DNA of 39,256 nt, from positions 62,001 through 101,256 of the forward strand of contig JBEWZL010000081.1 of NCBI GenBank assembly GCA_045837725.1, written 5' to 3'. Of this stretch, positions 28,325 to 39,256 are shown in pieces. A program made the position numbers and the translations under genes. The notes beneath the pieces were generated by a model. That model saw nothing but the letters and a program-made list of their open reading frames with translations, ran no database searches and was not told the origin of the DNA. Position 1 is the stretch's first letter; each line of letters starts with the position of its first letter. The stretch comes from Vermamoeba vermiformis. Its lineage: Eukaryota.

Positions 28325-30836
28325 ATGGCTGCCATCAACAAAATTTTGGCCGCACTCTGCGTGCTGGTTGCGATCTTGGCTGTCGCCCAATCAGCAGGCA
28401 CTTTAACGAGCGTGTTCGCGTAAGATACACAACTGATAGGCACCAAAAGACGCTTAATAATATTTCTTGATATACTCATTTCATTTTTGAGCATTCCAAC
28501 GCAGATCTTTTGAAACGCTGCTAACGATTTTTACTCAGGACCTTCAATTCTATTGGTATCACTGTTGACATTGGCGCTTCAGATGACCCTTCGCAAACAG
28601 GTATATATCATAGATCATATTTTGACGCGACAGTAGTTAATTTCCAAAAAATCTTCAGGATCAGCGTCCGTTCAATACCGCCAGTCCGGATCGCAAGATT
28701 GGCTCAATGGGCACCCACTCGTACGCACTACAAGTACTCGCTACGTAGGGAGTATAATGTGGCTCAATGAGAATACTTCGTAAGTGGACCAGTTTGGCAC
28801 GTGGCGAATCTTTAATTCAATGCTGTCAGTTATGACATCAAAGTGCGCGTGTCAACGGACAGCGCGGACTTGACTCAGACTATCAAGACACGAGCGGACA
28901 GTGAGACTCAGTTGCCTGCTGCTACAAAGTCCTACTACGCGTCACCGAGCGGCACTGGATCTGCTTGCAGTGATCAGTCGCCTTGCTCATTAGCTACAGC
29001 ACTCGATACGGCGAATGGTGACGAGGAAGTTGTGCTGAAGGACGGCGTGTACTACGTGGGCGAAATAACTTTGAGTAATTCCGCAAACAAATACGTTGTC
29101 ATTCGTGGTTCGAGACAAGGTCAGCTGCGCTTCGTTGATAATTGTTAATGCACCTACTGACACTATAACAGCGATTATGGATGGCAGCGACCCTGCAACG
29201 TTCACATGGACCAACACAGGAGGCACTATCTACAAGACTACGATCACCGTTCAAGATCCGCAAGTCGTCGTGGCTAACGGCAAAAGACTGTTCAAGCACA
29301 CTTCTCTCTCGGGTCTTCAGACCTTGGACAAAAAGTCTCCTGGATTCTACACCTCGGGCACCGATCTTTATGTCAACTTGGACGGCATGGCGTACGTTTC
29401 GATATGGCTGCATCGGTCATTCTAATAGTCTTAATAGGCAAACCAATCCCGCCAATGCTGATGTCAAGATCAGTCGTTACGAGTACGCTTTCGTCTCAAG
29501 TAATTATATCTTCTATTACGGCTTCAGCATGCGTTACTACGGCGTTGGAGATGTAAGTGACACGTGTCATTTGCCGCACAGTTTAACACATGTTCCTGCA
29601 GTACGGCAAGGGTATTTACTTGGACACTGCCAATAACAACGTCATCTCGAACATGTATTTTGAGCACAACGACGCGTCAGTAGCGCTGAAGCGTCCTTCG
29701 TCCAACAACGTCGTTCAAGACTGCGAGTTCTACGACACGAAACACGACTTCCTTTGGGAGAGTGTCAAAGGTGGGTCCGTGTACGAAACAGCTCCGGTCA
29801 CCATCTTCGAGACAACTGATGAATCAGGACGTGGTCTTGTCATTCGTAGAAACAGATGTAAGTTGATCGTTGACCTTGCCAAACATTGTTTTAACCTTGA
29901 ACAGTCGAAGGATTTTTCGATTCAATCTCACCTGTCGGAGGCTTTGCAGTTGGTCACTTGCCCATTGAAATGGACTGTCACGACAACGTAATCACAATGA
30001 GTGCCGATGACGCCCTCTCGTTGGACGGAACGTGCGCCAACTGTCGTGTGTGGGGCAACAAGATTGATAACAGCTTAGTGGCGTTCTCGATGGCACCGAT
30101 CGACGAAGGACCAGTGTTCGTCGTGCGCAATCTGGCTTACAACATGCAAGGATCACGCTCGGATGCTGGATACAAAGGCTTGGCAATCAAGTTGAACAGC
30201 GGCTACAGTGAGCAAGGCAAAATGTTCGTGTACCACAACACCTTCGACATGCGCGTGGCTGACACGATCGGCTTGAATATTGAATCACCGGGAGTGTGGA
30301 ACTTGGTCACGCTGCGCAATAACATCTTTTGGGCTGCAGACAACACCTATGCTATTTACAACGTAAACACGGGCAATGCAATGGACATGGACTACGACTT
30401 GTACTACACGACCAAGAGTGACTACATTGCCAATTGGGACAACAAATACGCGACACTTGCTGCATTTACAACGGCGACATCGCAAGAAACTCACGGTTAC
30501 TTCTCATTGCCCTCATTCAACGATCGCGATGGCGGTGATTATCGCTTGACGAGTGCTTCAACACCTCAAATCGACAAAGGTGTGGTGATCCATGGCATCA
30601 ACGACAATTATCGTGGTTCAGCACCGGATCTCGGTTACTTTGAATACGATGCCGGCACACCATTAGCACCTCTGTCATCGAACCCTCCTCCTTCTTCTCC
30701 TCCTCCAAGTGGTGGCTCGCCCAATGGTAGTTCGAACAGTCCTTCAAAGTCGCCGCTCTCCGTTTCTACCGCTGCAACGAATGGCGTCGCTTGGATCTTC
30801 AGCGTTGTCATATTTTTTTTATTTTGTGTTAGTTAG
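28325..30836 (+). CDS. Secreted, probably GPI/TM-anchored protein with an FN3-like N-domain and a right-handed parallel beta-helix (pectin lyase-like fold)
   Basis: Signal MAAINKILAALCVLVAILAVAQS, then TFNSIGI...VQYRQSGSQDW..GHPL, YYASPSGTG, VVLKDGVY, DDALSLDG, GPVFVVRN, VYHNTF, LRNNIF, GDYRL, IDKG and GSAPDLGYFE. Ends with a Pro/Ser linker and a hydrophobic tail. Confidence 0.85.
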
Positions 30837-33835: not shown

Positions 33836-36127
33836 ATGGAAAGAACCACTAAAAATGGTGACGATTTTTGTAGGGCTATAAATTGGATTTGGAGCTTCAA
33901 ATTTACCTCCGCGGAGAACTATTTTAATAATCCGAAAAGTGCGGAGAGCCCTATCCACTCGTACTATTATGGAGAGGTATAATAAGGTACTATAAAATAA
34001 TTTTCTGATTTTTATGATTTAGACGCTAGCATTGCGAGCATTATTGACGGAAGATCCAGATGAAACCAAAGAGGCGACCAAAAGACTTGAGTTGGCTGAA
34101 AAGATATTATCCAAAACTCAAAACTCTTCGAGCATTATGGTACGTCACTAAATCGGACGAGCGATTTCTGAACCGTCGGGCAGGATGTGTTTCGCAGGCT
34201 TAGCTTGAGTGAGGCACGCAAACAAGAAGATCGAGTGACGGCGGAAACGAGGCTGCTTCACGCTGCTGTACGTAGCTTAAAAATTCTCTATCGGTAGCTG
34301 ATTGTCATGCTAGCTACTAGCGGAATTGAACGCTCTTCTCGGCTGCTTGTTCTTCCGAAGGGGGCATTACGTGAAGGGTATGGAATTCTTCATTTATATA
34401 GCGTCGTTAATTTTCACTGTAGGAGGCTTGTATATTCGCAAAAGTTGGAAAGCGTTCGAGTCATTAGCCAAAAAGACTGGAATATTGCGCGACAACAACA
34501 ATGAAACAAACGATAACAACACGGAACAGACAGAAGAGATCAAAGCATTGATAGCTCATCGCAATAGTATATTATACTTCGGAGTTGGTGCATTTTATTA
34601 TTTCGTGTCGCTGGTGCCATCAAATTTTGCGTGGCTCGTTGAGGCTCTTGGATTCAAAGCCAACCGTCAGTTTGGACTTGATTTATTAACCAAGTGCTAT
34701 GAAATGCAAGGTCCACGAGGTAACGAATGAAATTTACAGTTTGAATGTTTGTTGAACTAATCGATGGCGATAGCGATGATTGCCTTGCTGCTCGTTCTCT
34801 GGATTGAAATATTTTTCTTCGAAGACAAAGTCAAAGCCGCTGAAGCACTTGATTTAGCTCTGCAGCGATATCCGTAAGTACCGATACTATTAGTTCGACG
34901 AGCATGTGTTAACCACCGAATAGTGAAGGAACGCCGTACTACTATCTGGGTGGTTATTTTGCCCGCAAACAACGTGACATTAAGCGAGCGATCACGTACT
35001 TCGAGAAAGTGAATGAATTGACGGCGGATGTGAAGAGATTTCAAATCACGTCCTATTATGAGATTGGATGGTGTCACTGGCTCGGAACTGATTGGCGCGA
35101 GGCTGCTAATTGGTTTGAGAAGTTCTTGGCGGGTAATTATTAAATTCGTCCATTTTGATTAATAACCAAATTGCAGAACACAAGTCGCCCAGTTTCAAAG
35201 CGTACTGTGGCTATCAGTTGGGTATCGCGTACGACATGCTTGGTGAAAAAGATAAAGCACTGAAAGCATTCACTCCAGTACCTGGTTGGGTGCGCAAGGT
35301 AAGTATGCCCACGTGCTGTAAATAGGATTGGGGCTAATGATTGTGCAGCACTACACTTGGGATCAGTTCGCGGCTCGTAAAGCCAAAGAGTACTTGAAGA
35401 ACAATGGCATGACTCAATACGAGAGATTGATAGGTACGTGACGCGTGTAATCTGTCAGGCATGCTCTTATTGTAACTGCAGTGCACGCGCAAATAATTGC
35501 AAAGTTACTTCCTGAAGAAGCACTCGTCCTTCTAAAGCAAGCTCAAGGCACAGGTAAATGCTTGTTTACATGTGACGTTGCAAAGCGCTAACACTGCCAA
35601 TTGCAGGAGAGTCAAACGATGAGCTGAAAGCGGTGTATTACTACATCAAAGGATTGGCTCAAAAAGGATTGCAACGATTTGAGAAGGCCAAAAAGTCGTT
35701 CGAAGTAAGTTATAAAGAAATGCAAATTGTATGTCTAACTTTTAACTTTCAGCACGGAATTTCGCTCGAACGAGTCGCGAAAAGAGAGATTTATGCTATT
35801 CCTCATTGTTTGACGGAGTATGGTGAAATACTGCTTCAGGAGGGCCATATAGATGAAGCAAAGAAGCTGTTCACAAAGGCGCGCAAAGCTTTCAGCAACT
35901 ACGACTTCGACAAGCCTCTGATTCGTAAGCTCGAAAAGAATTTAGATCAGATCAAGCTACGGCAGAAACAAGAAAAGCGCGATGCCAAGCGAGAAAAAGC
36001 AACGAAAGAGCATGAGGATTACAAATCTTTGCGGCGAGTCAAGTCGTACTCTGGCACTTTAGAAGAGAGCGACGCAGACATTTTAGGAAAAGTCAACAAA
36101 GAAGATATTGATGATGTCAAATACTGA
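33836..36127 (+). CDS. TTC39/IML2-family TPR protein (5' end uncertain)
   Basis: YFGVGAFYYFVSLVPSNFAWLVEALGFKANRQFGLDLL, LQRYP, YEIGWCHW, SPSFKAY, YAIPHCLTEYG and NYDFDKPL across ~10 GT-AG exons. In-frame ATG at 33836. Confidence 0.82.
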
Positions 36128-36888
36128 ATAATTCGTAAGACAAAGACCCCGCTAAGGTGCGTCGGACAAATTGTCCCGTCCTTAAAGTGACGACTATTGT
36201 ATTAGCTTTAACTTGAGCTTTAATTATTTTAGATACGGCTTCACACTGAGTGAACAGCCACACTTCTATTGGCAATGAGATCCAAGTCTACCTAGTGGAT
36301 ATTCCTGAAGATTTTATTGACACTGTGGTTCATGGAGCAGTAAATCACCACTTATGTGGCCAACTGTGAGGAGCAAGTGGAGGCTATCATGAAGAAGTAT
36401 GACTCTCTGGCATCAACAAGTACAACAGATGAAACTAGAACAGTTATTATTTGTACCCCTAATAAATTGGTTTGGTTAAAAGACGGAAATGAATAAATGA
36501 GAGCCCCTTTAATGTGACAAACTTACCACAGGCTGTCAATTGGTTCAAAAACACAGAAATTGAATGATTGCATTTCAAATTGTTCATTACTGCTTGGAAC
36601 TGGTGAAGTCTGGAGTTTGAAGCAGCAACTTGGCATGATCATGTAGACAATATTCAGTCCATCCCTTAATTCCATTGTAGCAATACATATTCAATTGACT
36701 TATGTTTACTGTCCATTATATACCCTTTAGGGTTAGGGCTGGTGGGGCTGCGGTTGGGTGTGAGGCAAGTCAGCCACAGAGGTCAATCAAACATTTATAC
36801 AAATCAGCTGCCACCCGTGGCCAATGTATGTGACAGCTAATAAACAAGATGTTTAGAGTAGCCTGTATACTAGGAAATTGGTACCTTA

Positions 36889-36935
36889 GTTGATAACTGA
36901 CCCGTCCGCCAGGGGGACGGGGGCACGTTATCAAC
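36889..36935. repeat. Imperfect 47-bp palindrome/hairpin
   Basis: GTTGATAAC-tga-CCCGTCC-gccaggg-GGACGGG-ggcac-GTTATCAAC. Confidence 0.85.
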
Positions 36936-37011
36936 CCATGCTACACTGGGAAGGTAAACAGTACCTAACCTGCAAGGTTCAGCTTGAGGTATACCCAGTG
37001 ATAAAAATGAT

Positions 37012-37187
37012 GGATCCCCGTCCGCCTGGGGGTATATTTATTTAATAGGACCCCGTCCACCAGGGGGTATATTTATTTAATAGGACCCCGTCCACCAGGG
37101 GGTATATTTATTTAATAGGACCCCGTCCGCCAGGGGGACGGGGGTATATTTATTTAATAAGGGCCCGTCCGCCTGGCGGACGGGGGG
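37012..37187. repeat. Tandem ~35-bp repeat (4 units plus a terminal palindrome)
   Basis: Unit GGACCCCGTCCRCCAGGGGGTATATTTATTTAATA starts at 37012, 37048, 37083 and 37118. Ends in the perfect palindrome CCCGTCCGCC-T-GGCGGACGGG (37164-37184). Confidence 0.92.
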
Positions 37188-37506
37188 TGCTGTATCACTT
37201 CAGGACGCACTATCATGTACCTTTACCTCCTGCATTTAATATGTGGAAAAACCTGTTTCCTAGGAGTTAGGGTACAAAGGAAGCTGTTTTGGTGTAAAAA
37301 CATGAAAATAAAAATACCTTAATTTGACATCAAAAAGCGTGCAATTATTAAAAAGTATGCAATTTCAGCAGTTGCTGTGCAACTTCCTGATCTGAAGCCA
37401 ATCAGGAAGAGTACACACCAGAAAAAAAAGCCCAAGTTTTTGCTAAAATCTGTTCCCGATTGGGCTCAAATCGGGAAAAAACAACAACATGGTTGATATC
37501 GGCGCA

Positions 37507-37553
37507 GGTTCGAAGCCCAGTACTTGCAAATTGTTGCCGCCAGGATTCGAACC
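37507..37553. promoter_or_regulatory. Two inverted Pol III B-box (tRNA T-loop) motifs
   Basis: GGTTCGAAGCC on + (37507-37517) and GGTTCGAATCC on - (37543-37553). No full cloverleaf is recognisable. Confidence 0.6.
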
Positions 37554-37701
37554 TGTGTGTAGCAAGCAACAGAATTATAAATGCAGTTGGAAAATCCTCC
37601 CAGGGAGGCAGGGAGGCAATTCACCCAAAGTTGAGAAAGTCAATCTGCATCATTTTAATTACCCCATAACGCAGAGCAACACACAAGTCGCCCGCCCAAA
37701 T

Positions 37702-39226
37702 ATGGCAAGGTAAGTCCACGTGCTTTGAAATCTCTGGTGAAATTTCGTTTCCCTGTCCCGATTAGCAGCCAATAGGGAGCAATTTTAAGTTGTTAATTTT
37801 ACAATCCCGATTGGCTGCGTATCGGGAAGCTCCAATTTTTTTAATTCGTTGGTAGCAATCCCGATTGGCTCCAGATCGGGAAGACCCAAATTTAACGAGG
37901 CCCTCGTTAACATCCCGATTGGCAGCCAATCGGGAAAGGAAGGGTTTTTGTCTATGTTGTGGTTCATCCCGATTGGCAGCCAATCGGGAAAGCTCAAATT
38001 TTACAAGTCCCAAGGGTCTTCCCGATTGGCAGCCAATCGGGAAGGGTGCCCTGGGTTGTTTCTTTGCATCATCCCGATTGGCGCCAGATCGGGAAACCTT
38101 TTGGTCTAGTCTACTTTTTGCAAACTTACTAACCTTTTTAACCTGCAGTAACAACACCAACAGATCGTTCAACCCCCCTCGCCAGCACACCGCCGAAGAG
38201 CTGGATAACATGGTACAGCACGTCACAAGGTCTGTGACCAGGAACTCACCCCCAGCTGCCCAAGGCCCAAACAACAACGTCAGCCCTCCGCGACCTGGCC
38301 AAGCAAAGACCCAAGCAGTGGCCAAGGGAGGACTCAAGCTCGCCCTGCCAAGGAGCACCATTGGTGGCAAAGCCCAGGCAATTTTGGCTCCGTCAACACC
38401 ACCCAAGGAAAGGCTTATCCCCCAGTTTGCCACCCCAGACAAGTTTCTTATGGCTGAGGCGGATGACTCTTCCTCTGCCGAAGGTGATGCCGCTGGTGAT
38501 GCCATTGGCCAGGACAACTTCGATGGGATCACCGACACTCAGGCTATAAGGGCAATCGAGGCTTTGGAGTCCGAAGCTGCTGCAGGATCAACAAGACCCG
38601 AGGTTGGCGAGAAAGATAGCGAACCCCAGCAGCAGATGTCGTTGCGAGAATGGGTGGAGCAGCAAATGGACTTGGTGTCCACCGCATCAACATCCATGTC
38701 CAAATTCAGCGATGACATACGTTCGACAGGCCCTACAAATGGCAACTGGTTTATTGAGCCAGATGCCCAGAACCAAGTGTTGGTTTACCGTGGGACCATG
38801 TTCGATGATAAGAACCAGGTCATCAAATTGTCGGGGCCACAAATTATGCTCAAGGTGGTGAAAGCCAACCCATACCAATGGCTTGCCATGCTAGACTTTT
38901 CGCGAGAGGTGCCCACGCTTTACTCACTGAAGGTTACGTCTTGCTGGGCCGTCGACAGTGTCAATGGATGCCTGAAATCCTGGAAGTTGACAAAGCATAC
39001 GACAAAAGGCCAAATCAGCTGGAAGTTTGAAGAGCGGTTCAAAAATTGGAAAAACATGTACGACTTGGCCGTGCAGGAGGGTCCAGTGTCACGACCTGAC
39101 CAACTGACCGATAACCAGCTCGAGTCCATCAGAGAGCTTGAAACCAGGGAGGAGGTCATGATCCAATTGAGCACCCCAGCCCCGCCAGCAAAGGACCCCG
39201 AACCCACGATTACCGAAGAGCAGCAA
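37702..39226 (+). CDS. Unknown protein, 5' part (exon 37702-37709 + exon 38149-39226), probably continuing beyond the window
   Basis: ATG GCA AG|GTAAGT donor at 37710. TACTAAC branch (38127-38133) plus pyrimidine tract and CAG acceptor at 38148 give in-frame MASNNTNRSFNPPR. Open to a second GTAAGT donor at 39227. Disordered Pro/acidic N-half, then a ~130 aa Trp-rich globular segment. Confidence 0.7.
37756..38094. repeat. CRISPR-like array: seven 23-bp palindromic repeats (consensus TCCCGATTGGCAGCCAATCGGGA) with 26-31 nt variable spacers
   Basis: Repeats start at 37756, 37805, 37859, 37913, 37967, 38020 and 38072 (period 49, 54, 54, 54, 53, 52). Degenerate outliers at 37385 and 37454. Confidence 0.92.
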
Positions 39227-39256
39227 GTAAGTTTGGTGCAATTCTAGAATACATCC

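Follow-up and report, generated by a model that had tools for sequence, protein, structure and literature searches.

A phased palindrome array in the probable first intron of an orphan gene of Vermamoeba vermiformis

Start-proximal first introns place the start codon a few bases before a GTAAGT donor and carry a TACTAAC-type branch motif near the 3′ splice site. The same arrangement is found at the locus described here, an orphan gene whose predicted first intron holds an array of seven short palindromes. It lies near the right-hand end of a 39,256-nt window (the whole stretch of DNA that was analysed; Vermamoeba vermiformis contig JBEWZL010000081.1, positions 62,001 to 101,256 of the forward strand). 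Introns of budding yeast are bimodal, and stems that bring the 5′ splice site closer to the branch point are widespread, as set out in an excerpt of PMC12350175. Introns with such zipper stems resemble the present one in being long and self-folding (by prediction in our case) among mostly short introns. Another described system that comes close is the multi-CCAAT module of the NF-Y type, in which CCAAT boxes recur close to a gene start with a regular, helically phased spacing, as they do here; the flanks of the CCAAT boxes in the present array presumably match the NF-Y consensus.

The explanation that we consider best joins a real intron to a phased array of binding sites acting at the level of DNA; taken as a whole it is tentative, although not far from an even call. 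Its first part is the stronger: positions 37710-38148 are probably a genuine spliceosomal first intron, with translation starting at ATG 37702 and the eight coding bases of exon 1 being joined to 38149. Its second part, the regulatory reading at the DNA level, is a possibility that stays somewhat short of even once the intron is granted. The elements of the gene model are as follows.

37702 to 37709, plus strand: coding part of exon 1, ATGGCAAG, predicted
37710 to 38148, plus strand: predicted first intron, with GTAAGT, TACTAAC and CAG; its non-repeat parts measure 36 + 33 nt
38149 to 39226, plus strand: exon 2 of the orphan gene, with codons from 38150 and a GTAAGT donor at 39227, where the gene leaves the window
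38210 to 38212, plus strand: alternative start codon, aacATGg, at which the prokaryote-style calls P0001 and P0007 begin

The splice signals can be read directly. ATG occupies 37702-37704, the coding part of exon 1 is followed by GTAAGT at 37710-37715 (the sequence from 37702 is cccaaatATGGCAAG/GTAAGTcc), and the 3′ splice site reads aaACTTACTAACctttttaacctgCAG/Taacaac, with CAG at 38146-38148 and the acceptor G at 38148. TACTAAC lies at 38127-38133, which would put the branch A 16 nt before the 3′ end of the intron. When 37709 is joined to 38149, removing 439 nt, the result is ATG GCA AG/T AAC AAC ACC AAC (M-A-S-N-N-T-N), and this frame continues into the long open frame that runs from codon 38150 to the donor at 39227; unspliced, exon 1 would read ATG GCA AGG TAA. 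An earlier note on this DNA had proposed the ATG, the donor, the branch motif, the acceptor and the restored frame, and all of them were confirmed in the sequence. The 8-nt first exon of that note is correct for the coding part, but not as a physical exon, which must also carry a 5′ untranslated region.

These signals agree with the local usage. The donor aag/GTAAGT is that of two of the seven introns of a neighbouring gene, GTAAGT being the donor of three, and the 3′ end, with CTAAC, a T-rich stretch and CAG, resembles the CTAAC/CTAAT/TTAAC-type motifs, T-rich stretch and CAG or TAG of those introns. Among 36 in-phase ATG..GT candidates in the 1.9 kb upstream, a donor matching at 6/6 positions is found only in first exons that end at 37709, and chance yields a perfect in-phase ATG..GTAAGT in only 47 of 1000 shuffles. 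TACTAAC occurs twice on the plus strand of the whole window. Strict ACTAAC was considered as a genome-wide branch motif and rejected, as it is rare (6 on the plus strand, 8 on the minus strand) and introns use a looser yTAAy. In terms of a U2-type intron, the segment thus has a donor of the local consensus, a branch motif followed at the local distance by a YAG acceptor, and an ATG-led open frame that is restored by its removal.

A coding signature begins at the acceptor and not at the alternative start. The 20 codons of 38150-38209 have GC contents of 0.50, 0.40 and 0.80 at the first, second and third positions (16/20 for the third; binomial P 0.027), compared with 0.55, 0.45 and 0.61 in the main exon, and over the 60 nt that lead up to the acceptor GC falls to 0.38. 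Scored with the gene's own codon model, the segment gains +0.32 log-likelihood per codon in frame, the other frames totalling +0.67 and -10.75; under an independent codon model from the neighbouring gene it gains +0.40 per codon in frame, with -0.36 and -0.21 off frame. The latter score is reached by only 4 of the 1958 non-coding 60-nt windows of 36131-38148 and by 4 of the 823 stop-free ones. The best distant homologue of the exon 2 protein, P0003 (45% identity, HMMER), points in the same direction: a BLASTP alignment of P0002 with P0003 pairs residues 14-330 with 2-300 ('TAEELDNM' with 'SASELDQL') and begins at exon 2 residue 14, thereby reaching seven residues further upstream than the Met of ATG 38210. 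As this Met is Leu in P0003, it is not conserved; P0004 has Phe in that position, in the MAFFT alignment only. The frame is open back to 37856 and contains no in-frame ATG before 38210, so a coding region reaching further upstream needs an upstream exon for its start. The coding signature and the P0003 alignment indirectly support the earlier view that the open reading frame (ORF) start listed at 37865, a TTG, is not the real N-terminus. The signals, the frame and the signature upstream of ATG 38210 are observed; from them we infer splicing and the transcription start.

The predicted intron and the region before the gene hold the members of one palindrome family, none of which is assigned to a strand.

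37756 to 38094: array of seven 23-nt palindromes, with cores at 37756, 37805, 37859, 37913, 37967, 38020 and 38072
37385 to 37407: degenerate palindrome copy, TCCTGAT..ATCAGGA, the sole copy changed on both arms; it keeps one CCAAT
37454 to 37476: degenerate palindrome copy that retains both outer arms, TCCCGAT/ATCGGGA, and ATTGG on the left

The consensus of the 23-nt palindrome is TCCCGATTGGCNGCCAATCGGGA. At up to three mismatches it is matched eight times in the window, always within 37454-38094, where 0.00 matches are expected (100 shuffles); the looser pattern TCCCGAT-N9-ATCGGGA finds the same eight sites, and at 37383-37410 a repeat finder adds a ninth copy, which is more diverged. No copy occurs in the other 38 kb of the window. 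All seven copies of the array are inside the intron, as the earlier note had it, but the family is not wholly intronic, since the two degenerate copies (37385-37407 and 37454-37476) precede the ATG by 230-320 nt. Within the array the spacings are 49, 54, 54, 54, 53 and 52 nt, with a mean of 52.7 nt or ~5 helical turns.

Two aspects of the array argue for a reading at the level of DNA. First, the cores are alike and their surroundings are not: core pairwise identity is 0.867, against 0.333 for the following 26 nt. Three cores are identical beside unrelated spacers, the other array copies carry 2-3 changes, and the repeats decay along the array. Identical cores, divergent spacers and a constant 52-54-nt period are not what duplication and neutral drift would leave behind, and the pattern therefore implies either that the core is read by something or that it copies itself. 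Second, the parts that do not vary have a recognizable content. The outer arms TCCCGAT/ATCGGGA and the left ATTGGC are invariant, the CCAAT pentamer (as ATTGG or CCAAT) is kept in 9/9 units and present in both orientations in three, and 10/10 occurrences of CCAATCGG in the window fall in the array region. Owing to the invariant arms, the CCAAT in every unit, the difference between cores and spacers, the spacing of ~5 helical turns and the presence of copies on either side of the start codon, the DNA-level reading is favoured. On this reading the palindromes would be binding sites, clustered in phase, of a dimeric or CCAAT-type factor, protein binding being suggested by core conservation against spacer divergence; the sites would straddle the gene start, two upstream and seven in the first intron, and the cluster would act as a promoter-proximal or intronic regulatory module. 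We thus regard the locus as a lineage-restricted gene whose intron was inflated by an array, and the function of that array, if it has any, is more likely exerted at the DNA level.

The length of the intron has to be considered against that of its neighbours. The neighbouring upstream gene has seven GT..AG introns of 54, 50, 44, 50, 48, 53 and 48 nt, whose removal yields a 461-aa frame (34380-36127); a second solution differs solely in a 56-nt sixth intron. RNA reads from a relative corroborate three of its boundaries (35347 and 35704 by loose ends, 35431>35481 by a joint). An unfiltered ORF-merging scan gave 21 short intron candidates of 44-81 nt, and longer candidates exist, unverified. It had been noted earlier that the introns here are mostly of 45-200 nt; the 439-nt intron is indeed an outlier, but the norm among the checked introns is shorter, 44-54 nt (n=7). 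The intron is 8-10 times the local norm because ~370 nt of it are palindrome array. Without the array, 36 + 33 = 69 nt are left, the size of an ordinary intron here. A possible precedent for a mini first exon, at 28767, was rejected because on inspection it is out of frame.

Several points weigh against the combined explanation. With 439 nt compared with 44-54 nt in the seven neighbouring-gene introns, an 8- to 10-fold excess, the intron lies far outside the local range of lengths. ATG 38210 has a good context, with A at -3 and G at +4, and was chosen by gene callers. The N-terminal likeness to P0003 amounts to ~7 residues in a low-complexity region, where P0004 matches only in MAFFT. Upstream of the donor the frame stays open over 87 codons and includes ATG 37489, which makes a longer exon 1 possible; this candidate was rejected, as the codon models give no coding signal in any frame. 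As to the array, the tandem repeat program TRF did not call it at score 50 or 30. Three RNA runs placed 4, 6 and 13 reads, from ~13 million records each, on 34200-39256; all are 90-95% alike to this DNA and lie on the neighbouring gene, with 0 on 35721-39256. The runs represent a diverged relative and therefore say nothing on the splicing or expression of this gene. Finally, in the contig run of a related strain (probably DNA), 37408-37712 differs by 7 other letters and 2 gaps, 37836-38026 by 5 and 38938-39095 by 1, so that divergence in the upstream region and array is ~4 times that of the coding exon. Of the three differences listed for 37836-38026, two fall inside a palindrome (37917 and 37924) and are uncompensated, which gives no sign of stronger constraint on the cores.

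As a separate observation, the RNA runs carry the species label of the best DNA match and yet are only 90-95% alike even in a conserved coding gene (34369-35720). This label therefore covers clearly diverged strains or species.

The rival that survives best, although we consider it rather unlikely, accepts the intron and holds the array to be selfish or neutral: a foldback element, or one resembling a miniature inverted-repeat transposable element, or a minisatellite, would have multiplied in a short intron and nearby. On this view, the similarity of the cores would come from short-tract conversion or repeated insertion and not from function. The 69 nt left after removal of the array, near the local intron size, fit this course of events, as do the uncompensated core differences in the relative's contig. 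The spacers are also more alike than chance allows: their mean pairwise score is -4.07, compared with -6.64 (sd 0.83) for shuffles, and 0/200 shuffles reach the observed value; spacers 2, 3 and 5 have ..C(C)AAATTTT.. in common. Some units therefore arose by duplication. A second palindrome family, CCCGTCCRCCWGG, which is unrelated to the first, lies in this intergenic stretch too, with nine matches at up to one mismatch against 0.05 expected (36901-37184, the region extending to 37186), which suggests that the region collects palindromic repeats. Transposon-derived introns, furthermore, are documented in many protists, according to an excerpt of PMC9860276. However, simple duplication and drift are insufficient for three identical cores beside unrelated spacers at 52-54 nt, and a multiplying element left no further copy in the remaining 38 kb of the window. 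The collections searched contain no array either: there were 0 matches in viral contigs and 0 in prokaryote genomes, and a metagenome scan returned eight single chance matches, 0/8 of which had the full TCCCGAT-N9-ATCGGGA. Neither terminal inverted repeats nor a target-site duplication were seen around the array on inspection of the sequence.

Two further repeats of this stretch may be mentioned on their own. Part of the CCCGTCCRCCWGG family is a tandem repeat of 35 nt, with 3.5 copies, at 37016-37137. An inverted repeat at 37504-37557 carries GGTTCGAA motifs in its arms, which look like a B-box or T-arm; a tRNA-like reading, or one as a short interspersed element, was rejected, because ARAGORN found no tRNA and Rfam gave only a 12.6-bit tRNA-like match.

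A second rival, which is unlikely, dispenses with the coding intron. Transcription would begin at ~38100-38200, the protein would start from ATG 38210, the palindromes would be promoter elements and the splice signals would be coincidental. The context of ATG 38210 is in keeping with this proposal, and two independent gene calls on related contigs, P0001 and P0007, begin there. The intron is a ~9-fold outlier in length, palindromes also occur further upstream, and coincidence is not vanishingly rare, a perfect in-phase ATG..GTAAGT turning up in 47 of 1000 cases when the 952 nt upstream are dinucleotide-shuffled. What weighs against it is the stretch 38150-38209, which has a coding signature under two codon models (rank 4/1958) and into which the P0003 alignment extends, with Leu in place of the Met. 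Textbook branch motif and acceptor stand exactly at the onset of that signal. The two gene calls, moreover, read through the next donor (..QQ/VS..); they are prokaryote-style calls and their start says little.

Three more elements of the sequence are relevant to the start of transcription and to the folding of the intron.

37576 to 37582, plus strand: TATAAAT, a possible TATA box, 120 nt upstream of ATG 37702
38124 to 38129, plus strand: ACTTAC, which is exactly complementary to the GTAAGT donor and overlaps the branch motif
37582 to 37701: interval without any ATG

In the predicted fold, ACTTAC at 38124-38129 pairs with the donor at 37710-37715. Such pairing would join the two ends of the intron and yet mask the donor. 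By path length from donor to branch point, a shortening through the fold does not stand out from shuffles (27 compared with a mean of 14).

It is quite improbable that the long first intron exists in order to carry the array, whose palindromes would be read as hairpins once the intron is excised, or else would act as an intronic enhancer, with the dosage tied to transcription or splicing of a lineage-restricted gene. If it did, this would be a eukaryotic locus in which a spaced repeat array and the neighbouring gene form one functional unit.

Still less probable, to the point of being very doubtful, is that the excised intron is a functional structured RNA, either a set of hairpins to which a protein binds or the precursor of small RNAs, and that it is functionally tied to the protein that the gene encodes. 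The intron folds at -186.5 kcal/mol, compared with -124.3 for shuffles (z -9.5, 0/100 shuffles), adjacent identical palindromes can form 23-bp duplexes with loops of ~30 nt, and all seven of the seven array copies lie within the intron; one copy has both arms changed, and on the plus strand three cells are G-U. The low folding energy, however, follows trivially from the presence of palindromes at all, and single hairpins have at most 11 bp. Covariation is 0.091, compared with 0.074, a level reached by 120/500 shuffles, and palindrome cells are paired in 87.9%, compared with 87.8% in shuffles; two pairs are changed on both sides and 6/11 are invariant. The inner right arm decays without compensation, pair 9-15 being unpaired in 6/9 copies, and two palindrome copies lie outside the intron. 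Rfam returned seven matches, all below gathering (the best at 32.8 compared with 100 bits), with no snoRNA (small nucleolar RNA) within the intron, and the protein family has no recognizable nuclease or RNA-binding domain.

The array is not a CRISPR-like RNA array: identical repeats with unique spacers are not found (only 3/7 repeats are identical, and the likeness among spacers exceeds that of shuffles), adjacent cas or defence genes are absent, and the window's protein belongs to no Pfam or PADLOC family. The earlier note had proposed a repeat-spacer RNA coupled to an effector. The RNA half of that proposal is not supported, in view of the weakly related spacers, of covariation at the level of shuffles and of Rfam matches that are sub-threshold noise. 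The effector half finds no Pfam, PADLOC or PDB match to lean on, and it places an effector in a eukaryotic gene cluster with spliceosomal introns and with two palindrome copies outside the intron.

The window as a whole is eukaryotic, with open frames that have PPR, TPR, aspartokinase/homoserine-dehydrogenase (AK-HSDH) and LEA domains. Exon 2 encodes 359 aa and has a 99% twin in related contigs, the sole match of a near-length search. HMMER against 1.84 billion representatives gave five matches, four of them distant relatives (E 6e-57 to 4e-06); a profile search gave two homologues and a search for longer proteins 0. The relatives, which all appear to be calls on genomic DNA, have in common a C-terminal region of ~130 aa in which positions G, W, E, K, W, A, W, N, W, Y, A and G are invariant. 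The exon 2 protein has no match in Pfam, in a PDB profile search or in the ESM Atlas, and only noise in PADLOC. The sole match in the defence library, P0003 to Cas8g (E 0.015, 12.6 bits), is absent for the window's protein and was taken as noise. P0002 had no match in viral contigs, and P0003 gave 62 pattern stretches in prokaryote genomes, none of which was confirmed. Both AlphaFold models are poor (predicted local distance difference test, pLDDT, 37.1 and 45.7) and may suggest strands followed by a C-terminal helix.

In P0001, P0003, P0004, P0006 and P0007 the conserved exon ends alike and is followed by V-S, V-R or V-K (GTA...); this common end with its GTA read-through suggests a family-wide conserved intron position after the exon. 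The orphan gene (38001-39000) has a GC content of 53%, compared with 34-47% over most of the window (roughly 0.40), and from its composition it could be a recently acquired or fast-evolving gene. An ORF of 46 aa at 36356-36496, without a significant Pfam match, is preceded at 36332 by ATG + 5 nt + GTAAAT, and a short gene that is not annotated may lie at 36332-36496, with the TPR gene on one side and the repeats on the other. At the other end of the window there is a T run of 147 nt at 98% purity (1137-1283).

What does this locus tell us? If the gene model holds, the protein begins M-A-S-N-N..., at neither the TTG nor the ATG picked by the ORF finders, and a genome whose checked introns measure ~50 nt tolerates one of ~440 nt when the surplus is self-pairing repeat DNA. 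On the one hand, the array is odd for a eukaryote, with identical 23-nt cores, unrelated spacers and a five-turn phase astride a gene start, and it offers a convenient test case for phased transcription-factor sites, for intron-mediated regulation or for a self-propagating palindrome. On the other hand, the locus gives no evidence for a CRISPR-like system in eukaryotes.

Comparison with known systems places these features more exactly. By eye the array looks like a CRISPR array, having short, partly palindromic repeats, a constant period, dissimilar spacers of ~30 nt and an adjoining gene of unknown kind. The context here, however, is eukaryotic, with spliceosomal introns and an array that would itself be intronic; the repeats decay and recur outside the array, and the spacers are partly related. 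Mirtrons and intron-hosted snoRNAs or microRNAs (miRNAs) are similar in that a protein-coding gene would release a structured RNA from its intron. In a mirtron, a short intron in its entirety forms one hairpin of ~22 bp, whereas the present intron has 439 nt and seven short palindromes, and no snoRNA or miRNA family is above threshold. Introners occur in many near-identical copies across a genome, each of which carries or creates splice sites; here the splice sites are outside the repeat and the window has 0 further copies. The likeness to introners and transposon-derived introns, as far as an excerpt of PMC9860276 describes them, is that repeat DNA makes up most of a long intron in a short-intron genome. 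An intronic minisatellite would be a neighbouring case, but the constant 49-54-nt period goes with weak spacer likeness and yet with no tandem call by TRF.

The two systems with which we began also differ from the locus in specific ways. The zipper stem of yeast is a single stem, whereas the structure here comes from a repeat array, and the predicted pairing between the donor and ACTTAC would hinder splicing and not help it. Multi-CCAAT modules have a reported spacing of 26-30 bp, compared with ~53 nt here. In the present array each unit has two CCAAT boxes back-to-back, 8 nt apart, inside a palindrome whose invariant TCCCGAT/ATCGGGA arms are not part of a CCAAT box, and most of the sites would be located downstream of the transcription start.

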